From a virus (taxonomy: Duplodnaviria; Heunggongvirae; Uroviricota; Caudoviricetes), in IMG/VR virus record IMGVR_UViG_2541047860_000003, positions 1 through 34,596 of that record: DNA of 34,596 bases, one strand, 5' to 3'. The notes under the pieces are model-generated. The model was not told the origin of the DNA. It saw nothing but the letters and a program-made list of their open reading frames with translations, and ran no database searches. Position numbers and translations under genes: made by a program. Below, in pieces: positions 5,061-34,596 of this stretch. Position 1 is the stretch's first letter; the number at the start of each line of letters is the position of its first letter.

Positions 5061-5423
5061 TTAACGACCTGCTGCGCGGAGTTTTCCGTCAGGTTCACCG
5101 GCAAGAGTCAGCAACTGTCCCTGGTCTTCCTGCAGAATAGTCAGGCGACCACCGCGATTGACATACATCGGCGTTTCGGTGGTGTCTTCTTCGGAAATTT
5201 TCCCGCGGTTAGTCGGGCGAACATATGAGAGTTTGTGTTTGATTTTCACTCGGTTCTCATCAAACGGTTCGATTTCTAGGTTGAGCGAGACCTTACCTTT
5301 GGTTTTCGTGTTCATCACACCGGAAGCGACTTCACTGAGAACTGCGCCGATTTTGGTTTCAAATACGCCGCCGTCCAGCTCCCCGATAAATGCCTGCACA
5401 TCAGTACTGCGTTCGCTAGCCAT
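5061..5423 (-). CDS. YfdP-like small prophage protein
   Basis: Start assigned to internal ATG at 5423 preceded by SD GAGGAG with 7-nt spacer; the longer 226-aa reading extends into a GC-rich hairpin region and has no RBS. Confidence 0.5.
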   Translation of the reverse strand: MASERSTDVQAFIGELDGGVFETKIGAVLSEVASGVMNTKTKGKVSLNLEIEPFDENRVKIKHKLSYVRPTNRGKISEEDTTETPMYVNRGGRLTILQEDQGQLLTLAGEPDGKLRAAGR

Positions 5424-5891
5424 TTTGCTGCTCCTCATCATATCGACCCTGCAAGGTCGGTTAGTTTCTCCACAAAACAGAGAAGAACACCTGCGGTGAC
5501 TGCCGCCCGGATGGATTGGGTTATGAGCCCGTCGTCCGGTGATGCTCTTCTCTGTTTTGTAAAAAGGACGGTACCAGCCGGAAGCAAGGGTACAAGCTGG
5601 TACCGCCAAGACTACACACAGCATAAAGTTGTGGTGCCGGGTGCCTCCCGGTGCCTGGCGAAGGTTGCACACCAGGCGGGTGGGTATCCACAGAAGGTCG
5701 ACTGTCAGCCTCAACCTTAACCCGCGTGCGCTGAGCCGCATTCACCACAACGCTAAGGATTCTCTCTGGTTGAAAATACTTAGCTGTTATGTGCCTGCTT
5801 TTAGCCACATCAGGCGAGGTGGACCTAGTTATTCCCCAACAACAAGGATTCGGTTAATCTGGTTATCCCCAACAACGCAAAAGGAAAAGAA

Positions 5892-6326
5892 ATGTCCGGT
5901 AATATCTATACGCTGTACAAATCCCACTGTGAAAATGTTGGAAAGTATCGGGGCATTGAAATCAGTGGGGTAGTGTCATCAGTCGAAATAAGCAAAGTTG
6001 AATCAAGGGCAACATTACTTACTCTTTTGGACCTTGTCTTACATGAGCACCGGAAGAAATTCGGCACTCCCTATAATCAGTTGAATGGGAAAAAGGCTCT
6101 GGTTCACCTTATTCTGATGAAGCATCACTGGATGCCAAAACAGATTAATGAGATGAAATTTGATGAACTTCTTCTTTCAATTCAGGATGAACTCACACTT
6201 GATAAAATAAGCGTAACCGCCCAGAAATTTTTAGATTATCGAGACTGGAGATCACAAATTCATCACTTTGATGATTTTGACGAAAATGAATGGGATCCTA
6301 ATTTGTCTGCACAATATCTAAAGTAA
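5892..6326 (+). CDS. Hypothetical 144-aa protein (AT-rich cargo gene in immunity region)
   Basis: ATG at 5892 with AAGGA SD; visibly AT-richer than the flanking phage genes; convergent with and overlapping the 68-aa minus-strand gene; no recognisable motif. Confidence 0.5.
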   Translation: MSGNIYTLYKSHCENVGKYRGIEISGVVSSVEISKVESRATLLTLLDLVLHEHRKKFGTPYNQLNGKKALVHLILMKHHWMPKQINEMKFDELLLSIQDELTLDKISVTAQKFLDYRDWRSQIHHFDDFDENEWDPNLSAQYLK

Positions 6327-6504
6327 CATCCTGTGATAAAACCGTGATTTCCTGATCCAGTTTTTTTAAGGAGTCTATTGTTTCCTGTCGATAAGACAGC
6401 ACTTCACGAAGCTGGTTTATAGCTGCCAGCTTCTTTGTCATCCACTCATAAATTTCCTCATCTGTGTAGCCAGGCGCGACGATTTTGGGTTCTGTTTTGT
6501 GCAT
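6298..6504 (-). CDS. Hypothetical 68-aa protein, first gene downstream of predicted PL
   Basis: ATG at 6504 preceded by GAGGAG with 7-nt spacer; predicted coiled-coil-like, not Arg-rich, so not an obvious N homolog. Confidence 0.45.
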   Translation of the reverse strand: MHKTEPKIVAPGYTDEEIYEWMTKKLAAINQLREVLSYRQETIDSLKKLDQEITVLSQDVTLDIVQTN

Positions 6505-6549
6505 TTCACATCTCCTCAAGTTATCAGTTACTTGTTGATGGGGACCAGA

Positions 6550-6561
6550 TTGTTAAAGAGC
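6550..6561 (-). promoter_or_regulatory. boxA-like element (GCTCTTTAACAA) on the leftward early transcript
   Basis: Minus-strand GCTCTTTAACAA matches 11 of 12 positions of the E. coli rrn boxA (TGCTCTTTAACAA) as recalled, 3 nt after a hairpin, between predicted PL and the first leftward gene. Confidence 0.4.
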
Positions 6562-6564
6562 TAA

Positions 6565-6586
6565 GCGTCCTGTAGGGCGCTTTTTT
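6565..6586 (+). terminator. Plus-strand hairpin plus T6 run (putative terminator for the 144-aa gene)
   Basis: GCGTCCTGTAGGGCGC followed by TTTTTT; on the opposite strand the same hairpin immediately precedes an rrn-like boxA. Confidence 0.4.
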
Positions 6587-6754
6587 GTTGCTAACGAATC
6601 ATCCTGGACTTCATATGCCCCAGGCGGCTACTTCGTGGGCGTCCTGCCTGTTCGTTTTTGACATTTACTGACTGCTTACGACACATGCACCGTGTTGCAA
6701 CCAGATTTTGTTGTAATCCTGTAGTTGGTCTGGAACAAAAGATAAAATTAAATT

Positions 6755-6796
6755 GTGAGATATGCAAGTGGTATTTGCGTGATATGCAAGTTGATA
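6755..6796 (-). promoter_or_regulatory. Putative OL/PL operator-promoter region
   Basis: Contains TTGCGTGATA, the same 10-mer present in the cI-cro intergenic region, plus direct repeat ATATGCAAGT twice; lies just beyond the cI terminator. Confidence 0.4.
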
Positions 6797-6800
6797 GGTA

Positions 6801-6823
6801 ATAAAAAGCCACCTTTCGGTGGC
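6801..6823 (-). terminator. Intrinsic terminator downstream of cI
   Basis: Minus-strand hairpin GCCACCGAAAGGTGGC followed by TTTTTAT, about 20 bp after the cI stop. Confidence 0.5.
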
Positions 6824-6842
6824 CGATGGAAGGATATTGAGG

Positions 6843-7535
6843 TTAATTATGTCTCTTAAGGGTTTGAGACTGACTGATTAAGACCTTTCCAAAGACCATG
6901 AATCGGTGTTCGTTTTCGCTAGTAATTCCCCATTCACGGTAAATCTGGTTATCAGAAATCACCAGCAGTTTGTCAGGAATCATTTGAAGTCTTTTAACGT
7001 ATATTTTGTCATCAAAACCAAAGACATATATACCATCACCATCAAACTGATTGATGCTGACATCAACGAAGATGAGATCTCCTGGCTCAATGGTTGGACA
7101 CATACTGTCCCCACGAACGTTGATAACTTTGATGTGATTGGCTGGTCGTCCGCCGAACATTGATACAGCATTATCAGTTCTGTATTCGATGGCATGAATC
7201 ACATCAATGACATCACCGCCCTGGATAAGGCCATTTCCCGCACTGGCACTGATATCCAGCATTTCAATACGGAACACATCCTTCACCTGCGCAACATCCT
7301 CATTATTACTGTTTTTATATACAGTATTACTTTTGTGGGCAGAGGTAAAGAGATCAGCAATATCAACACCTAAGCTCTTGGCAATATTACTCAGTGTTTG
7401 TTCGGTAAATTGTTTTTGCTTACCCGTTTCTAAGCGCGAGATGTTCGCCGCATCTACTCCTATTGCTTCAGCGAGATCGGCGATTTTCATGTTCTTCGCT
7501 TGGCGAAGTTGTCTGACTCGGTTTCCTATGTTCAT
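6843..7535 (-). CDS. cI: CI-type phage repressor (HTH + S24 LexA-like peptidase)
   Basis: N-terminal HTH (QAKNMKIADLAEAIGVDAANISRLETGK), Ala-Gly site (SASAGNG), S24 motifs (GDSM ... KR); divergent from cro across an operator-bearing intergenic region. Confidence 0.9.
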   Translation of the reverse strand: MNIGNRVRQLRQAKNMKIADLAEAIGVDAANISRLETGKQKQFTEQTLSNIAKSLGVDIADLFTSAHKSNTVYKNSNNEDVAQVKDVFRIEMLDISASAGNGLIQGGDVIDVIHAIEYRTDNAVSMFGGRPANHIKVINVRGDSMCPTIEPGDLIFVDVSINQFDGDGIYVFGFDDKIYVKRLQMIPDKLLVISDNQIYREWGITSENEHRFMVFGKVLISQSQTLKRHN

Positions 7536-7632
7536 GCGTTTATTACATTTCTTTATTGCGTGATAAGCAAATCAACTTGCGCAAAATAATTGCGTGAAAT
7601 AACATGCATAACGCGCAATATTTGGAGGGCGT
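7536..7632. promoter_or_regulatory. OR region with divergent PRM/PR promoters
   Basis: 97-bp cI-cro intergenic region carrying four related operator-like sites (TTGCGTGATA, TTGCGCAA, TTGCGTGAAAT, ACGCGCAAT). Confidence 0.6.
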
Positions 7633-22093: not shown

Positions 22094-22744
22094 ATGCAGA
22101 CGAAACAACGTCTTGATGTACCGCTGAGTCTGAAATCTGTCAGTGACTCCGGTGAGTTTGAAGGGTATGGCTCCGTCTTTGGTGTAAAGGACAGCCACGA
22201 TGATGTGGTGATGTCCGGGGCATTTGCTGCTTCCCTGCGGGCGTGGAGTGACAGAAAAGCGTTACCTGCGCTGCTCTGGCAGCACCGCATGGATGAGCCC
22301 ATCGGTGTTTACACCGAAATGAAGGAAGACGATGTCGGGCTTTACGTCAGGGGGCGGTTGCTCATTGATGATGATCCCCTGGCAAAACGCGCACATGCAC
22401 ACATGAAGGCCGGTTCGTTAACCGGCCTTTCTATTGGGTACGTCCTGAAGGACTGGGAATACGACCGGACGAAAGAAGCCTTTCTGCTGAAAGAAATCGA
22501 CCTCTGGGAAGTCAGTCTGGTGACATTCCCGTCTAACGACGAGGCGCGGATCAGCGACGTCAAGAACGCACTGGCCCGCGGGGAAATCCCCGAACAGAAA
22601 AAAATCGAAAGAGTCCTGCGTGATGTCGGACTCTCCCGTACCCAGGCCAAAGCATTCATGGCAGGGGGCTATGGCGCACTGTCCCTGCGCGACGCTGAGG
22701 ATGTGGGCTCTGCACTGAATGCACTGAAAAATCTGAACTTCTAA
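22094..22744 (+). CDS. Prohead protease (HK97 family)
   Basis: Located between portal and major capsid; about 216 aa; ATG at 22094 after AAGGA. Confidence 0.75.
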   Translation: MQTKQRLDVPLSLKSVSDSGEFEGYGSVFGVKDSHDDVVMSGAFAASLRAWSDRKALPALLWQHRMDEPIGVYTEMKEDDVGLYVRGRLLIDDDPLAKRAHAHMKAGSLTGLSIGYVLKDWEYDRTKEAFLLKEIDLWEVSLVTFPSNDEARISDVKNALARGEIPEQKKIERVLRDVGLSRTQAKAFMAGGYGALSLRDAEDVGSALNALKNLNF

Positions 22745-28000: not shown

Positions 28001-28269
28001 TGAAAGAGCTTGAGTTAAAGAAACCGATTACTGCTCATGGCGAGACACTCTCCGTACTGGAGTTTGATGAGCCTACCGGGAAGGATGTCCGCGAGCTGGG
28101 GTATCCCTACCAGATGAATCAGGATGAGTCCGTCAGACTTCTGGCGCATGTGGTGTCGAAATACATTGTGCGGCTGGCGAAAGTGCCGCAAAGCTCTGTC
28201 GACCAGATGTCTCCGGCAGACCTGAATGCAGCGGCGTGGCTTGTGGCTGGTTTTTTCCTCCAGGCCTGA
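28000..28269 (+). CDS. Tail assembly chaperone (G-like)
   Basis: 89 aa after the tube; the slippery heptamer T_TTT_TTC sits in its last codons, allowing a -1 shift into the following frame. Confidence 0.55.
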   Translation: MKELELKKPITAHGETLSVLEFDEPTGKDVRELGYPYQMNQDESVRLLAHVVSKYIVRLAKVPQSSVDQMSPADLNAAAWLVAGFFLQA

Positions 28270-29783
28270 CGGCTGAATACCTCACTGATCGCTTCTTTGA
28301 CTGCGCCAGCTACTGGCGCATTAATCCCTTCGAATTGCTGAATTTGCCGTTCAGTAAAGTTGGAGCGAAAGCGCGGATTGCCAGGGTGCTCGATAAGCAT
28401 GGTCTTGTCGGTGATTATCGCGATGTGACCCGATATAGCATTGCCTCTGGTTATCCTTTCGACGGTGATGAGGTGACCGCCGAAATGGCAGAGTGTGAAA
28501 ACCTGTTTTCTGTGCCGGTTGACGTAATGATCACAAAGGTACAGGAAGATAAAGTCAGTGGCGTAGAGGTCGTAAAGGCGTGGAAATCTCTGCCTACCGC
28601 CGAAAATATCCAATGGGTATTTGAGCGCATCGGAGCCATGCCCGCTCGTAACATGATGTCGGCAAAAATTGAGCTTCTCAGCCTGGACGGCTGCAACTCT
28701 GGTGTTAGCGAGGTATCAGCGACCAGCCAGTTATTGAGCGAGTGCGCTCGCCGTGGAGTTCCCGACAAGAACTACGCAGCACACCTGGAATCAATCGCAG
28801 AACGCAATGCGTTTCACCCCATCAATGAGATTCTCAAATTCCGGCAATGGGATGGCAAAAACCGCGTTGCTGATGTGCTAGGCGCTATCAAGACTGATGA
28901 TGACCCATATTCTCATCAAATCCTGCTGAAATGGCTGGCTGGCGCGATTTGCGCCATTGATAGCGGCAGCGTGGCTATTAAGTTTTGCCCGGTCATTCAT
29001 AGCAAGGCCAACAACTGGTACAAGTCGCAGCTACCGGAGCGCCTGTTTAATCTGGTTGAAGGTGCTTTTGGTGGCGCTATCGGCATCCCGGAGCCATCGA
29101 ACAAAGACGACCTGATGAAATCAATTAGCGCCTGGTGTTATGAATTTGGCGAACTGGCTGGAATGACTAAGCGTGACGCAGAGGCTATCAAAAGCTTTAT
29201 CCCGATGAGTGAGGATATTTTCCGGTTGCCGTATGGCCGGTGTAATCTTTCCAAGCCGCGTCAGACGGTGTACATCGGCACAACTAACCGTGATGACTTC
29301 ATTCATGATGAGACAATCGCTACACGCTTCCCGGTTATTAAGCTCGCCTCACCGATTGACATCGAGCGTATCAATAAAGCACTTGGCTACGAGTTCGACG
29401 GCAACAGGGCCGTACTGACTGACCGCGAACAACTGATCCAATTCTGGCTTGAGGTTCGCCAGATGGTTGCAGACGGCCTTAATTACGTTATTGACGGTGA
29501 GTTGCTGGCTATTACCAGAGGGAAGAACAAAGAGTTCGAGTCGAGAACCAGCTATGACACCACGCTGCTTGATACGCTGGCGATGCACGATGGCCGCACA
29601 TATCAGACCACAACGCAGATATGCAATGAAATCGGCGTGCCGGTTGATAAGCGAGTACATGTGGGCAGGGCTCTCAACAAGCTTTCGGATAATGGTGTTA
29701 TTGAAAAGAAAGTGACAGGTGGAGTGGCTTACTACACCTTCCCCACGCGGGTTAACTATTTACCAACCCGAAATCCCGAATAA
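28236..29783 (+). CDS. VirE-like protein with degenerate P-loop and C-terminal winged helix; N-terminus continuous with the chaperone -1 frame (possible fusion)
   Basis: 515-aa ORF; central region ...KSFIPMSEDIFRLPYGRCNLSKPRQTVYIGTTNRDDFIHDETIATRFPVIKL resembles the VirE / primase C-terminal family, but the Walker A position reads HSKANNWYKS; C-terminal 60 aa are similar to the C-terminus of the 118-aa protein at 30441..30797. Confidence 0.45.
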   Translation: MACGWFFPPGLTAEYLTDRFFDCASYWRINPFELLNLPFSKVGAKARIARVLDKHGLVGDYRDVTRYSIASGYPFDGDEVTAEMAECENLFSVPVDVMITKVQEDKVSGVEVVKAWKSLPTAENIQWVFERIGAMPARNMMSAKIELLSLDGCNSGVSEVSATSQLLSECARRGVPDKNYAAHLESIAERNAFHPINEILKFRQWDGKNRVADVLGAIKTDDDPYSHQILLKWLAGAICAIDSGSVAIKFCPVIHSKANNWYKSQLPERLFNLVEGAFGGAIGIPEPSNKDDLMKSISAWCYEFGELAGMTKRDAEAIKSFIPMSEDIFRLPYGRCNLSKPRQTVYIGTTNRDDFIHDETIATRFPVIKLASPIDIERINKALGYEFDGNRAVLTDREQLIQFWLEVRQMVADGLNYVIDGELLAITRGKNKEFESRTSYDTTLLDTLAMHDGRTYQTTTQICNEIGVPVDKRVHVGRALNKLSDNGVIEKKVTGGVAYYTFPTRVNYLPTRNPE

Positions 29784-29799
29784 CCAGAACACAATCCAA

Positions 29800-29824
29800 C
29801 CCTGCTACGGCAGGGTTTTTTTTG
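29800..29824 (+). terminator. Strong intrinsic terminator
   Basis: CCCTGC-TACG-GCAGGG followed by nine T residues. Confidence 0.75.
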
Positions 29825-29920
29825 CCTCGTGATCGTGACTGCTTAGCCAGAAAAGGTCAAAAGAAAGCCACTGGAAAGAAAGTCAAAACCGGCCCCTGCT
29901 ATCCCGCCGCGCTCAGGTGG

Positions 29921-30265
29921 GGTACTCCACCTACTCCCCCTACTGATGTTACTCCACCTTGTTACTCCACCTGTTTAACTGAATGATATTAAATAAGAAA
30001 AACCAAAAGGTGGAGTAGGTGGGGTAAAAAGCCGCAAAAACTCCAGAGATTTAATCAGCGGTAAAAATACAACCACCTATGGGCTATATACTACTTATCT
30101 AATTAAATAATAATTATATATAAAGTTACTCCACCTACTCCCCCTAAAGAAAATAAAGTTAAATATAAACAATATGTTAGCTCATAAAAGGCATTTAATT
30201 TACCCCCCCTTTTACCCCACCTTTACTCCCCCTATGAAACTTACCCCCCCTGATTTACCCCACCT
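29921..30265. repeat. Iteron array with AT-rich region (putative plasmid-type origin)
   Basis: At least 12 copies of the 10-mer TAC(T/C)CC(A/C)CCT in both orientations (29921..29972 direct, 30007..30025 inverted, 30126..30145, 30198..30265) around an AT-rich stretch at 30060..30180. Confidence 0.6.
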
Positions 30266-30385
30266 GATGCAGGAATCTAGCAGGAAAGTTGATAGAAAAG
30301 GCATTTTGTATTTGCGGAAGTGGTATGTAGACGATCCGCTTTCTTTTCCCAGTGGCTTACTTCCACTATCTCTGCAATTCGCTCG

Positions 30386-30414
30386 CGTAGTCTGATGTTG
30401 GTATAATGAACCAT
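30386..30414 (+). promoter_or_regulatory. Sigma70-type promoter with extended -10 (TGgTATAATGAACC)
   Basis: GTTGGTATAATGAACC about 30 bp upstream of the 118-aa gene; near-identical to GGTGGTATAATGAACC at 31973..31988. Confidence 0.5.
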
Positions 30415-30440
30415 ATAACCAACAATGCAGAGATGCGACG

Positions 30441-30797
30441 ATGACCAATGAAACAAAGGCTTTCACGGTACGAATTCCCGCAGTCGTTTATCAGGCAATT
30501 GCTGAACGGGCAAAAAATGAAGGCCGGTCACTCAGCTACATGGTGAGCAATGCGCTCTGCGCGTTCGCTGGCATTGATGACGCCCAGGATGATTACGAAA
30601 CGCTTTTGCTTGAGGCAGTTAATACCGGGTCAAATATAAGGGCGCAGACAGTGACGGAAATTTGCAGCGTTATCGGTGTGGATGCTGCCAGGCGGATTCA
30701 TGTAGGCAAGGCATTGCGAAAACTGGCAAGTGGCGGAGCGGTAGTCATGCGGAACCGCAGCGGGTGCAGAGTCTATAAATTTCCTTCTAGCGTATAA
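30441..30797 (+). CDS. RHH (CopG-like) N-domain plus winged-helix C-domain regulator
   Basis: N-terminal KAFTVRIPAVVYQAIAERAKNEGRSLSYMVSNALCAF is ribbon-helix-helix-like; C-terminus similar to that of the 515-aa protein. Confidence 0.5.
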   Translation: MTNETKAFTVRIPAVVYQAIAERAKNEGRSLSYMVSNALCAFAGIDDAQDDYETLLLEAVNTGSNIRAQTVTEICSVIGVDAARRIHVGKALRKLASGGAVVMRNRSGCRVYKFPSSV

Positions 30798-31024
30798 TGG
30801 GCAACATGAACAAATTCGACAGAGTGAAACGCCTTGAAGCGTTCAAGCCAAAGCAGCATGAAGCTGTTCTATCAATTCTCCGGGAGCGTGCTGACATGCC
30901 GTCAGGCAATGCCGGGGAATGCGTGTTTGCCATTCTCATGAAGAAATATGCTTCGGCACAGCAAAAGCCCGCAGGTATCCAGGCGTCCGGCGGGGAAAAT
31001 TCTTTTCTTCCAGTGGCTAATTGA
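30797..31024 (+). CDS. Hypothetical 75-aa protein
   Basis: ORF start overlaps the preceding stop (TAATGG); no motif recognised. Confidence 0.3.
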   Translation: MGNMNKFDRVKRLEAFKPKQHEAVLSILRERADMPSGNAGECVFAILMKKYASAQQKPAGIQASGGENSFLPVAN

Positions 31025-31056
31025 CAGAATAACCCAACGGCAAAGTTGAGGCGTGT

Positions 31057-31512
31057 ATGAAAGACAATACCGTAAATGACGCACCTGATAACGAGCAGCC
31101 CGATATCGAACGTGATAAGCGGGGGCGGTTTACTAAGGGGCAATCAGGAAACCCATCAGGGCGAACCAGAAAGGAGCGCCAGTTATTAACAATGATGGGT
31201 GATGATGCTGACAGCGTGGCGCAAATCGTCATTGATGCGGCAAAGGGCGGTGACATGCAGGCTTGCCGCTTGGTACTTGAAAGGGTGCTTCCCGTCCGCA
31301 AGGCCAGATATGAGGCCGTAGAGTTTGAAATTGATGACACCACACTTGCAGGCTCTGCAAAGTCAATTCTTGCAGCTGTAGCAGGTGGAGATCTGCCACC
31401 AGACGTGGGCGCAATGCTTCTCCAATCAGTAGCTCAAACGGCGAAGATTATCGAGATTGACGAACTTGAGCGGCGAATCGCAGCACTGGAGAAAGGCAAT
31501 GAAACTGAATAA
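31057..31512 (+). CDS. DUF5681-like protein
   Basis: N-terminal KRGRFTKGQSGNPSGRTRKER motif recalled for DUF5681-type plasmid/phage proteins. Confidence 0.4.
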   Translation: MKDNTVNDAPDNEQPDIERDKRGRFTKGQSGNPSGRTRKERQLLTMMGDDADSVAQIVIDAAKGGDMQACRLVLERVLPVRKARYEAVEFEIDDTTLAGSAKSILAAVAGGDLPPDVGAMLLQSVAQTAKIIEIDELERRIAALEKGNETE

Positions 31513-31954
31513 ACGGCTTGAAGCTCTGGAGCAGCGTAGGCCCACGAAGAAGGGCGCAGAGGCTCTCACCGATGAAGAGCTGGCCGCAGCTATCGCCAGG
31601 TTTACACCGGAAGAGATCCGCGCAGCAGAACGGGAGTTATTGCTATGGTTAGGTTAACGCGACGCCTTGAGGTTCTGGAGGAGCAGAGACAGCGTCAGCA
31701 ACCGAAGATCGATTTCCCGCTATATACCATCATTGACAAGCCATCTATACAGACACCCCGCAAGCACTCATTTTCCAATCCTCCCGCTTATCTCTTGGTG
31801 AACTCCTGAAACGAAAAAGCCCCCACATTTCTGTAGGGGCCGTTTCGTCAATCTGCGTTTGATGGTCGGAAGGATGGCCGACAACCTAATTATGCACCGG
31901 CCTGTAAAAATGTACCAGCCTTAAATACAGAAAATCGTAAAAACTTAATCACGA

Positions 31955-31990
31955 TTTTCCGTAAATCATTAACGGTGGTATAATGAACCG
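31955..31990 (+). promoter_or_regulatory. Promoter with extended -10 plus palindromic operator
   Basis: ACAGAAAATCGTAAAAACTTAATCACGATTTTCCGT palindrome followed by GGTGGTATAATGAACC, upstream of the 134-aa gene. Confidence 0.45.
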
Positions 31991-32005
31991 TCAATCCTTC
32001 TTTTA

Positions 32006-32410
32006 ATGGTGATAGCGATGAACGAAGTAGATTCAATTCTGGCCGAGCAGAAAAGAGCCGCAGAACAACGCCGCTTGGCTAATGAGAAGAAGCGCCATCC
32101 ATCCGGCCTGTACGATGCGGGTGATGGGTGGTATGTGAAGCAAATCGAAGAGCTTCACTCCCCGCTGGGTCTCAGTAAGGTGGTTCTGGTAAGCCCTGAT
32201 GATGTTTGTGTGAGATATCAGCGCCAATATGGCAAAGCACTCACCACTGACAAATTGAAGGAATGGAGCAGGGACGGGAACTTCCCGTTGCCGCGCTCTA
32301 TTAATGGGGTTATCGGTTGGGAATCGAATGTTGTGACCAATGGCCTGAATGAACTGAGCAAAGCAGCCGGTCGCGGCTTTACCTGTATCACTCGAGGATT
32401 CGCACGATGA
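32006..32410 (+). CDS. Hypothetical 134-aa protein
   Basis: ORF downstream of the promoter/operator; no motif recognised. Confidence 0.35.
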   Translation: MVIAMNEVDSILAEQKRAAEQRRLANEKKRHPSGLYDAGDGWYVKQIEELHSPLGLSKVVLVSPDDVCVRYQRQYGKALTTDKLKEWSRDGNFPLPRSINGVIGWESNVVTNGLNELSKAAGRGFTCITRGFAR

Positions 32411-32613
32411 GCAAAGAATCTGTAATCGCGGCATTGAAAAAAGCGCGTGAAGCGCGTGAAGGCAATATCTTCGGTGGTACTGGGCAGGCCGAATTTAACA
32501 AAGATTTTTATGCTGGCCGCGCCACCAAAACAGATGGTGTCAGTAAGACCGACAGTAACGAGCCGATGAACCAAAAGGCATTTAATGCCCGGTTCTACTC
32601 CGGTAAAGGCTGA
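32407..32613 (+). CDS. Hypothetical 68-aa protein
   Basis: Start overlaps the previous stop (ATGA); Lys/Gly-rich. Confidence 0.3.
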   Translation: MSKESVIAALKKAREAREGNIFGGTGQAEFNKDFYAGRATKTDGVSKTDSNEPMNQKAFNARFYSGKG

Positions 32614-32708
32614 TTATAGGCAATCGGGCATATCGCAATTGCTGCCCGACTGTTTGGATTGTGACTGTTGAGAAATAGACGCAATTCCGCAATTACAGAA
32701 AATCGCAT

Positions 32709-32933
32709 TTACTTATTTCCGTATTTCTCCATTAGTAACTCTCTAACCTCATCGGCAATCTTTGCTCCTCTCTCTGCTGTTTGCATCTTGATGGCACGGT
32801 GCAAAGATTCAGGGATATCAATCGTCAGGCGCTTCATTTTTTCCGTTTCTTCTGGCGCTGTTACGCGGTCACTAATCCAGGCGTCTGCTGATGCTGGCGT
32901 TGGTTTTTTGCCAATTGAAATCTTCTTGCTCAC
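32709..32933 (-). CDS. ParG-like RHH centromere-binding protein
   Basis: 74 aa; GTG start overlapping the parA stop; C-terminal KRLTIDIPESLHRAIKMQTAERGAKIADEVRELL is ribbon-helix-helix-like. Confidence 0.55.
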   Translation of the reverse strand: MSKKISIGKKPTPASADAWISDRVTAPEETEKMKRLTIDIPESLHRAIKMQTAERGAKIADEVRELLMEKYGNK

Positions 32934-33559
32934 TTCATTATCTCCAGCAGTTCATTAATCAGGTTCTCAATCTCTGCAACAGCCTGGCTGTTAGCGTCTA
33001 CCTCATGCAGAGCTTTACCACTCGCCGCAGCCTCTGCGAATATCACTCGCTGGGTTATTGCAGTTTGCAATGTTGGGATGTCATAAGCGGCTAAAGCCTC
33101 GCGAACATCACGCCCAATAGCTGTATTTGCGATTTTACGATTAATCACAAAACATGATTTGATGTTTTCTTTAAATACAGAAGCCTCAGCAATGAGTTTT
33201 ACTATCTCATCGGCGGCCCATATGTCATATGGTGATGGTTGAACCGGTATAAGCACCGCATCGGATGCCATGATTGCAGAACGTGCCAGGTCAGTGACTC
33301 GCGGGGCACTATCAATTACAACATGGTCATAGCCTTTCGCCAGTTCCTGAACCTCTTTATGAATTGTGGCGCGGGGAAGCCCAACGACAGAGAATAATGG
33401 TTCCCCATCTCTCGCCGCCTGCCAATCTAACGCGCTCCCTTGCGGGTCTGCATCGAGCAGCAGCACCCGGCAGCCTCTCCGGGCAAGGCTTGCCGCAACG
33501 TTCACAGAAAGCGTTGTTTTACCCACTCCGCCTTTTTGATTCAGTACGCCAATTATCAT
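32930..33559 (-). CDS. parA: ParA-type partition ATPase (small type Ib)
   Basis: Deviant Walker A MIIGVLNQKGGVGKTT..., LLDADPQGS, 209 aa. Confidence 0.85.
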   Translation of the reverse strand: MIIGVLNQKGGVGKTTLSVNVAASLARRGCRVLLLDADPQGSALDWQAARDGEPLFSVVGLPRATIHKEVQELAKGYDHVVIDSAPRVTDLARSAIMASDAVLIPVQPSPYDIWAADEIVKLIAEASVFKENIKSCFVINRKIANTAIGRDVREALAAYDIPTLQTAITQRVIFAEAAASGKALHEVDANSQAVAEIENLINELLEIMK

Positions 33560-33703
33560 GTCGACCTCTATCCAGTTTTGGCCAGATGGTACAGAAAATC
33601 GTAAAAACTTAAAAGCGTATCTTCTAATTTACAGATGAATAATCCTGTTAAATACACGCGGCAGCCCTCGTTTTTTCGTCCAGTGGCCATATTAGCGGGC
33701 CAT

Positions 33704-33735
33704 TTGACATGGCTTCAAAACGGCTTCAAAATGAT
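33704..33735 (+). promoter_or_regulatory. Sigma70-like promoter with direct-repeat operator
   Basis: TTGACA at 33704..33709, 17-bp spacer containing GGCTTCAAAA twice, then CAAAAT; upstream of the RHH gene. Confidence 0.4.
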
Positions 33736-33756
33736 GCCATAACCATAGGGGGATTT

Positions 33757-33915
33757 ATGCCAACACCAAAACCGAAAACCATCACATTCAGGCTTTCAGA
33801 TGAACTACTGGAAGATCTTAAGCGCCTTGCCGACGATGAAGGACGCTCTATTAATTCGATGCTCACGGAGTTGGTGAAGCGAGCCGCTAAAAAGCAGGAT
33901 GGCGAAAGTAAATGA
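33757..33915 (+). CDS. Small RHH (CopG/Arc-type) DNA-binding protein
   Basis: 52 aa from internal ATG; KTITFRLSDELLEDLKRLADDEGRSINSMLTELV is an RHH signature. Confidence 0.5.
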   Translation: MPTPKPKTITFRLSDELLEDLKRLADDEGRSINSMLTELVKRAAKKQDGESK

Positions 33916-34337
33916 GAAAAACACTCCTGGCATTAATCGTTATCTTGGGGTCAGTTTGGAGATCGGAAATTTCTGTACGTTAAGCGCATTATTTAACCAA
34001 TCTTGGTTCGTAAGGGGTTGATTTTGCGTCAGTGGCTATCGCTTTTAAGTTGTCGCTCTTGCAGTATCGCATTTAGGTTATCCGATTAAGGTCAAACCTC
34101 TGAAAATGCCGTATAGCGCGGGAGTACACCCTATTGCGATAGCGCGATCTGTTCAAAAAACAGGCTTAACGTACAATAATTTCCGATCTCCAAACTCACC
34201 CCTTATTCACGCTGGCCAACCTGTTTCGGGCGGACCAAATGATACGTCAGTGGGAGAGATCTCACTAAAAACTGGGGATAGCGCCTTAAATGGCGAAGAA
34301 ACGGTCTAAATAGGCTGATTCAAGGCATTTACGGGAG

Positions 34338-34596
34338 GGTGATGCTGCCAACTTACTGATTTAGTGTATGATGGTGTTTTTGAGGTGCTCCAGTGGCTTC
34401 TGTTTCTATCAGCTGTCCCTCCTGTTCAGCTACTGACGGGGTGGTGCGTAACGGCAAAAGCACCGCCGGACATCAGCGCTATCTCTGCTCTCACTGCCGT
34501 AAAACATGGCAACTGCAGTTCACTTACACCGCTTCTCAACCCGGTACGCACCAGAAAATCATTGATATGGCCATGAATGGCGTTGGATGCCGGGCA
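34338..34596 (+). mobile_element. IS1 left end (partial, continues beyond window)
   Basis: Starts with the IS1 terminal repeat GGTGATGCTGCCAACTTACTGATTTAGTGTATGATGG and continues into insA; matches IS1 from memory. Confidence 0.9.
34393..34596 (+). CDS. insA: IS1 InsA (5' portion, truncated by window end)
   Basis: GTG start; translation [68 protein letters not shown] matches IS1 InsA. Confidence 0.85.

Follow-up and report, generated by a model that had tools for sequence, protein, structure and literature searches.

Predicted ParG-type box arrays at a partition cassette and a neighbouring promoter in a plasmid-derived segment of an Escherichia coli prophage

The DNA analyzed here (the window) is a 34.6-kb stretch, record IMGVR_UViG_2541047860_000003 of IMG/VR, with positions numbered on its full length. 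It corresponds to an E. coli chromosome, and 29800–33950 is 100% identical to strains 2017-02-1CC and C10. Between 28342 and 33903 lies a plasmid-like segment that carries, in this order, a VapE-like helicase gene, an origin, an operon headed by the gene for a 118-aa protein, an operon of two genes for proteins of 130/134 aa and 68 aa, a convergent parA–parG pair, and a divergent gene for a 52-aa Arc-like ribbon-helix-helix (RHH) protein. The first gene of the two-gene operon (32018–32410, plus strand) encodes 130 aa if translated from the ATG at 32018 and 134 aa if from 32006, and its product had no Pfam, NCBIfam or PHROG match. The second (32407–32613, plus strand) overlaps the first by 4 nt.

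The parA gene (32930–33559, minus strand) encodes a 209-aa small Walker-type partition ATPase of type Ib. The protein scored 283 bits against the NCBIfam model ParA_partition (cut-off 180), aligned over residues 2–207 with ParF in the PDB (4dzz; E = 1e-30), and belongs to the ≈200–210-aa Walker ParA proteins that have no N-terminal DNA-binding domain. Overlapping parA by 4 nt is a gene (32709–32933, minus strand) for an RHH protein of 74 aa, which has a tail at its N-terminus and the ribbon MKRLTIDIPESLH. This protein scored 20.8 bits against Pfam ParG, just below the cut-off of 21.4. Its best PDB match was ParG, 1p94 (E = 0.0016, or 3e-4 with a profile), and a comparison of its profile with TP228 ParG by hhalign gave a probability of 92% (E = 6e-7). 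By these comparisons it is a distant ParG homologue, with ≈29% identity. An arginine in the tail, R23, is invariant in the subfamily and aligns with the arginine-finger-like R19 of TP228 ParG. The ribbon, MKRLTIDIPESLH or KRLTIDIP, is also invariant across the subfamily; that of TP228 ParG is KRVNVNF.

An earlier reading made from the letters of the DNA (the sequence-only reading) had drawn attention to a 22-mer that is found upstream of the 134-aa gene, where it has an inverted partner, and again in the parA promoter region, with a shorter copy downstream of parG. All of these repeats are present, displaced by at most one base from where they had been placed. The 22-mer, ACAGAAAATCGTAAAAACTTAA, occurs exactly twice in the window, on the plus strand at 31927–31948 and 33591–33612, and one additional identical 5′ base extends it to a 23-mer (31926–31948 and 33590–33612). 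One hundred shuffles gave no match to the 22-mer, even with three mismatches permitted. The 11-mer ACAGAAAATCG is found exactly at 31927, 32695 and 33591, the middle one (32695–32705) being the shorter copy that had been put at 32694–32704, and an inverted near-copy, ACGGAAAATCG, lies on the minus strand at 31952–31962. With up to one mismatch allowed, the 11-mer had five matches, compared with 0.69 expected. Repeat finding grouped the sites as three homologous 37-nt copies (family D1; 31923–31959, 32691–32727 and 33587–33623), which have 73% identity to the reference copy. The flanks of the three copies are unrelated, so that the copies are not pieces of a larger duplicated segment. Compared by eye with the IHF, PurR, Cra and DnaA consensus sequences, the 22-mer gave no convincing match.

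Judging from the surrounding sequence, the 22-mer is not a free-standing operator, but the core of three box arrays of ≈40–48 bp. The array unit is 8 bp long and consists of a 4-bp box (ACGA, GCGA, ACGG, CTGT or AAGT) and a 4-bp AT-rich spacer. The boxes are degenerate, mostly (A/G)CGN, CTGT and AAGT; the order of the units and their strict 8-bp phase are common to all three arrays, and the AT content is 0.57–1.0 in the spacer phases versus 0.25–0.75 in the box phases. Array A (31923–31970, minus strand) has six units, AATG.attt ACGG.aaaa TCGT.gatt AAGT.tttt ACGA.tttt CTGT.attt, and contains the 22-mer at 31927–31948 together with the inverted partner ACGATTTTCCGT (31951–31962, plus strand). 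Array B (33587–33634, minus strand), CTGT.aaat TAGA.agat ACGC.tttt AAGT.tttt ACGA.tttt CTGT.acca, contains the other 22-mer (33591–33612) and overlaps the inferred parA promoter, which has its −10 element, TACCAT, at 33586–33591 on the minus strand (the parA ATG is at 33559). Array C (32675–32714, minus strand), AAGT.aaat GCGA.tttt CTGT.aatt GCGG.aatt GCGT.ctat, opens at the stop codon of parG; two more box-like units (32715–32730) lie within the last parG codons. Arrays B and C thereby place repeat clusters on both sides of parA–parG. No promoter accompanies array C. Its reading as a promoter element is unsupported, and the short copy 3′ of parG is instead the start of a downstream array that is conserved in the family.

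A candidate box pair, TTTGCGATTTTACGATTA, was also found inside parA (33126–33143, plus strand). Six of the eight k-mers that are enriched in the par flanks of relatives occur in it. On the opposite strand it constitutes the parA codons AAT CGT AAA ATC GCA AAT (NRKIAN, starting with N140, R141 and K142), the synonymous positions of which are fixed in 75 parA relatives (CGT 85%, AAA 100%, AAT 91%), far above the mean top-codon share of 0.53 across the parA comparison. The codon usage suggests that this may be an intragenic ParG site, conserved subfamily-wide.

More than 70 plasmids and contigs with nothing in common but this ParA/ParG subfamily carry the same boxes, both 5′ of parA and immediately behind parG. 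By tblastn, members of the subfamily (58–71% identity) are encoded on plasmids of Aeromonas, Oceanimonas, Cupriavidus, Alcaligenes, Serratia, Sulfuriferula and Hydrogenophilus, and a scan of genome contigs added 80 further loci. The genes next to the box-carrying loci differ, and include RelBE, DUF1778/GNAT, integrases, methyltransferases and various replication initiators. Boxes after parG are present in Aeromonas, Serratia, Cupriavidus, Hydrogenophilus and other relatives, and an Alcaligenes plasmid has the exact sequence ACGATTTTCTGT. The parA promoter of the relatives reads TTGCATG-TTTACGATTTTC(T/C)G-TAAAAT at the same position as array B; the boxes therefore fill the spacer and abut the −10 element.

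The k-mer, matrix and enrichment checks were made with the window and its Shigella relative left out of the training data. The 8-mers most widely common in par flanks, found in eight independent plasmid groups, were TTTTCTGT, TTTACGAT, TTTTACGA and GCGATTTT, all of them pieces of the 22-mer. Enriched k-mers had 31 matches in the window (shuffle mean, 8.8), 20 of which fell in four clusters within 31900–33650, or 5% of its length. Four of the five best window matches to a position weight matrix built from the relatives only were in the arrays: 18.1 and 16.2 in array A, 18.1 in array B and 17.5 in array C. A set of 68 non-identical ParG-subfamily loci, taken from genome contigs, had ACGATTTTCTGT with up to two mismatches at 2.66 per kb in the 150 nt 5′ of parA versus 0.13 per kb elsewhere, a 20-fold enrichment. 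Such boxes are absent upstream of a Zymomonas homologue whose ribbon is KRVAADIP, and a distant par locus with the ribbon RMTIDTPE (L108) has a large box array; anecdotally, both cases would agree with a link between ribbon and box. Because the same boxes flank parA and parG in more than 70 otherwise unrelated plasmids, the 74-aa ParG-like protein is the likely binder of the arrays, and the comparative evidence points to it over the 52-aa Arc-like RHH protein and the 118-aa protein, an RHH–winged helix-turn-helix (wHTH) protein.

Arrays at a distance from parA–parG are not unique to the window, since a contig of an Aquabacterium metagenome-assembled genome (L028, 9270–9310), itself a plasmid fragment with a member of the ParG subfamily, has an extra array, AAAACGCAAAATCGTAAATAAGCTTTTCTGT, ≈3 kb from parG and after a KfrA-like gene; the scan with the 12-mer ACGATTTTCTGT had picked it out. 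When 76 relatives were searched for stretches of at least 13 nt that recur from the array upstream of their own parA, few further arrays were convincing, the exceptions being the window itself and the parA-internal site.

The sequence-only reading had also seen near-identical extended −10 promoters before the 118-aa and 134-aa operons. They share an exact 14-mer, TGGTATAATGAACC, on the plus strand at 30399–30412 and 31976–31989, in each case ≈33 nt 5′ of the start codon of the first gene in the operon. This core is made up of the extended −10 element TGGTATAAT (30399–30407 and 31976–31984) and GAACC, and the only two TGNTATAAT sites in the whole window are those in the two copies. Around each −10 hexamer there are short inverted repeats (TGGT..ACCA and ACGGT..ACCGT). 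Since simple arithmetic predicts about two exact 14-mer repeats by chance in 34.6 kb, the pair is notable only as two perfect extended −10 motifs in promoter position. In a satellite without par genes (L015), the 130/134-aa gene is preceded at the corresponding position by a near-identical core, TGGTATAATGTACC, which makes the core ancestral to that gene cassette. The two copies of TGGTATAATGAACC share an origin as strong extended −10 promoters, which is not evidence of a common regulator, and the idea that they form a shared operator module is unsupported.

Neither the matrix scan nor the k-mer scan placed a ParG box at the VapE-like gene, in the origin (29915–30265) or at the 118-aa promoter. 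The predicted sites are confined to the par genes (at and inside parA, and after parG) and the promoter of the 130/134-aa operon (P134). A single regulator that coordinates replication is therefore unsupported. One RHH or wHTH protein had been proposed to control replication, partition and the unknown genes together; the evidence supports its link between partition and the 130/134-aa operon, but not the replication part. A candidate fourth array 5′ of the 118-aa promoter (≈30300–30325), which is 84% complementary to part of array C, had no matrix or k-mer score and was rejected.

The pair of 130/134-aa and 68-aa genes is also found in P4-like integrase/primase satellites beside dinD in 33 E. 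coli genomes. In the alignment, the satellites have the same terminator, upstream TGTAC..CAG stretch, −10 region and gene as the window, minus a block of ≈52 nt. This block, which holds array A, lies over the −35 region of the 130/134-aa promoter, and ACGATTTTCCGT covers the expected −35 position of this extended −10 promoter.

The sequence forms a strong hairpin at 31818–31841 (in the region 31811–31886), with a T-run that is stronger on the minus than on the plus strand. Satellites L003 and L014 retain the hairpin together with the 130/134-aa gene, and it is probably a bidirectional terminator. A short minus-strand RNA may start near array A (31805–31925); this region had a fold z-score of −3.3, driven by the terminator hairpin, and is poorly conserved in L015. 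An Rfam search of 29700–34100 gave no credible match.

We favor the reading in which the 22-mer is the best-conserved part of ParG-type box arrays and the locus is a partition cassette with one array recruited to a neighbouring promoter, and would put the probability that it is correct at about 70%. Dimers of the 74-aa ParG-like protein would coat the arrays cooperatively, as TP228 ParG does on its operator and centromere. Through array B the protein would autoregulate the parA promoter, and the array would also serve as one arm of the centromere. Array C is without a promoter, conserved in the family and arranged as in plasmid pB171, and would be the second arm. Occupation of array A by ParG at the −35 position would obstruct RNA polymerase and repress the 130/134-aa and 68-aa operon, so that expression of this cargo would be tied to the ParG level, and would add a third site to the partition complex. 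The anatomy of the arrays, the occurrence of the boxes with parA–parG across the family and the indel against the satellites are what is observed; ParG binding, repression and centromere activity at the arrays are what we infer.

Several points weigh against this reading. The parA promoter of the window has weak hexamers, the placement of which follows that in the relatives by analogy. Extended −10 promoters need no −35 contact, which makes repression from the −35 position plausible, but not assured. The identity between arrays A and B over 23 nt is tighter than degenerate boxes need, and may reflect a recent duplication on which selection has yet to act. Part of the likeness of array C to the other arrays may be explained by its distal units, as these overlap conserved codons of parG. 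Just 24 of the 68 loci had a match to the 12-mer ACGATTTTCTGT (up to two mismatches) upstream of parA, and the enrichment downstream was weaker, at 0.71 per kb. The element is a chromosomal fragment, in which partition is idle. It is known from a handful of near-identical copies (97–100% identity), and its own conservation is therefore uninformative. The searchable literature gave no binding, footprint, transcript or stability data for the ParG subfamily.

Arrays A, B and C and the parA-internal site might instead constitute a multipartite centromere only, with the overlap between array A and the promoter of little regulatory consequence. We consider this unlikely, although of the alternatives it survives best. 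It would account for array C, where a downstream array is conserved across the family in spite of having no promoter, and it would be at ease with a promoter that can do without −35 contact. In TP228, moreover, parH and the operator each act as centromeres (PMC3130281). However, array A is set exactly between the upstream part of the promoter and the −10 element, and the boxes of the relatives lie inside the parA promoter, the classic position of an operator. Known type Ib sites also double as centromere and operator (PMC2441792).

It is considerably less probable that array A was recently copied from part of the parA operator and is functionally neutral, that the 14-mer arose by coincidence or gene conversion, and that there is no regulon. 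The identity of arrays A and B over 23 nt, where box arrays tolerate degeneracy, would be expected of such a copy, the conservation of an element known in few near-identical copies says little, and an exact 14-mer repeat is unremarkable in a sequence of this length. Yet the second, inverted high-scoring box of array A (31951–31962) was not derived from array B, the 8-bp phase is kept through all six units, and the array sits at −35, as would be expected of an operator. We give least credence of all to the idea that another RHH protein of the element, the 52-aa Arc-like or the 118-aa RHH–wHTH protein, binds the 22-mer and coordinates the operons: both have RHH domains, and the 52-aa gene has its intergenic region in common with parA and array B, but the boxes flank parA–parG in many plasmids with unrelated neighbours and no homologues of either protein, the C-terminal half of the 118-aa protein is like the VapE C-terminus and points to the iterons, and a separate motif, CCAGTGGC, marks the regions upstream of both genes.

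The plasmid-like segment (28342–33903) is collinear, with 97.4% identity, with a 13.3-kb Shigella flexneri plasmid (L001, NZ_CP055032), and the same element was found on two metagenome contigs (L100 and L102). Its junctions are both intragenic. On the left, in the 28236–28342 region, the first ≈35 codons of the VapE-like open reading frame match the phage family phrog_32181 and overlap the tail assembly gene; on the right, at 33903, the last codons of the 52-aa RHH gene have been replaced. Because both junctions are inside genes, the segment is a fragment of a plasmid, 5.56 kb long, that became part of a decayed E. coli prophage. The C10 relative has the prophage order lysis, terminase, capsid, tail sheath, tail tube and tail assembly protein, followed by the VapE-like gene, the plasmid-type genes and then insertion sequences (IS). 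The tail module ends at the segment, with no tape-measure or baseplate genes after it. Further to the right are an IS5 end fragment (34203–34337) and the left end of IS1 (34341–34596). In a second query, the 100% identity with two complete genomes ran to 34337 and no further; the IS1 insertion is therefore, by this comparison, specific to the source genome of the window.

The Shigella plasmid, a circular molecule and the only close relative of the segment, carries an integrase, a toprim primase, VapE and parA–parG. Its 5339–7575 region encodes a Dit-like tail protein and a minor-tail or tape-measure-like protein, which is odd for a plasmid, and it may be a satellite-like or excised prophage-derived replicon. 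A match to ACAGTAAATCG in this plasmid (2537–2547) apparently codes for part of a small AlpA-like protein and was taken as chance. So was ACGCTTTTCTGT (22251–22262 in the window), an isolated high-scoring box in prophage coding DNA, of which ≈0.6 would be expected by chance. A 21-nt pattern that was scanned against viral and metagenome contigs gave mostly chance matches in coding DNA (that in L103 included) and was likewise set aside; its non-chance results were L100 and L102, which carry the same element, and the distant par locus L108.

The origin (29915–30265) has 14 iterons, TACYCCMCCT, on both strands around an AT-rich stretch (≈30090–30200) and lies directly 3′ of the VapE-like gene, a layout that, on sequence, looks typical of an iteron-type origin beside its initiator gene. 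The 118-aa protein (30441–30797) is a hybrid: its N-terminal RHH part is 25% identical to the 52-aa RHH protein (E = 5e-5), and its C-terminal 67 residues have 39% identity to the VapE-like C-terminus (E = 2e-14). Competition of this protein with the initiator for the iterons is conceivable, and the C-terminal likeness makes it the more likely route, compared with ParG, for any control of replication. The 52-aa Arc/CopG-like gene (33757–33915, plus strand), divergent from parA, matched Pfam RHH_5 (1.8e-8) and a PHROG Arc-like repressor.

A second repeated motif, consisting of a T-rich run and CCAGTGGC (consensus CTTTCTTxCCAGTGGC), has four copies in the window versus 0.23 expected. One adjoins the origin (29867–29880, minus strand), and the other three, on the plus strand, lie ≈45 nt upstream of the −10 element of the 118-aa gene (30343–30356), before a DUF5681 gene (31004–31017), and 16 nt upstream of the TTGACA before the 52-aa RHH gene (33674–33687). 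A fifth copy precedes the integrase operon of the Shigella plasmid, and the satellites have none. Another regulator, for example the 52-aa or the 118-aa RHH protein, may use the motif as an operator or activator site.

If the partition cassette is indeed of the ParG type with one array recruited to P134, a bolder extension is possible, to which we would give somewhat less than even odds: the ≈52-bp block of ParG boxes would be a portable operator/centromere cassette that rewired a satellite-type cargo operon to ParG, in a subfamily with multiple (at least four) sites. Expression of the 130/134-aa and 68-aa genes would then report the ParG level and, hence, plasmid copy number or partition state. 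With the parA-internal site included, the subfamily would use four or more sites rather than one upstream centromere. On the favored reading itself, the short indel provides a natural example of a putative partition-protein operator recruited to a cargo promoter. The predicted box consensus, (A/G)CGN and CTGT with an 8-bp period, is assigned to a widespread, apparently uncharacterised ParA/ParG subfamily, which is found on plasmids of Aeromonas, Serratia, Burkholderiales, Bartonella and others, and which appears to obey the box-and-spacer rule established for TP228 ParG. For annotation, the plasmid-like segment is a 5.56-kb relic of a VapE/ParAG replicon and not an autonomous unit.

The cassette is most readily compared with that of TP228, where one ParG dimer binds each box, direct or inverted, and the arrays constitute the operator OF and the centromere parH (PMC3130281). 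Common to both are a small Walker ParA with an overlapping gene for an RHH protein of ≈75 aa that has a flexible N-terminal tail and an aligned arginine, and arrays 5′ of the ATPase gene in which degenerate tetramer boxes alternate with AT-rich spacers of 4 bp (PMC3130281, PMC3413123). The TP228 ribbon, KRVNVNF, reads ACTC boxes (PMC3130281), whereas the ribbon here is KRLTIDIP, in a ParG of ≈29% identity, and the boxes are ACGA, GCGA, ACGG and CTGT. Where the ribbon of a ParG homologue differs, so do the tetramer boxes that it binds, the spacers always being 4 bp long and AT-rich, and the MetJ ribbon KKITVSIP reads ACGT (PMC3413123); by analogy, the pairing of KRLTIDIP with ACGN boxes fits that of MetJ with ACGT. 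The boxes here are within the promoter spacer and the −10 element, while those of TP228 are downstream of the −10, and arrays also occur after parG, possibly inside parA, and at a promoter outside par. There are ≈5–6 boxes per array, compared with 8 plus 12 in TP228. On sequence, the ATPase, the overlapping RHH gene, the arginine in the tail and the upstream box arrays are the features of a ParF/ParG-type (type Ib) cassette.

In layout, the locus resembles par2 of pB171, also of type Ib, which has repeat clusters upstream of parA and downstream of the gene for the centromere-binding protein; the repeats differ in sequence and number. We know of no description of a third par2 site at a cargo promoter. 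The gene order of par2 is parC1–parA–parB–parC2 (PMC4270457).

The closest functional parallel, by analogy, is omega of pSM19035, with its arrays in the P-delta, P-omega and P-copS promoters (parS1–3) that are both operators and centromere sites (PMC2441792). The differences are considerable. The pSM19035 arrays consist of unspaced 7-bp heptads, WATCACW, as opposed to the 8-bp (4 + 4) units found here, the host is a Firmicute, and the similarity of the ParG-like protein to omega is negligible (E = 0.35–0.7). Omega controls copy number and toxin–antitoxin genes, with sites at a copy-control promoter as well as at partition promoters, whereas the predicted sites described here extend to no replication gene. 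What the two systems appear to have in common is an RHH centromere-binding protein with arrays in several promoters, linking partition to other functions (PMC2441792).

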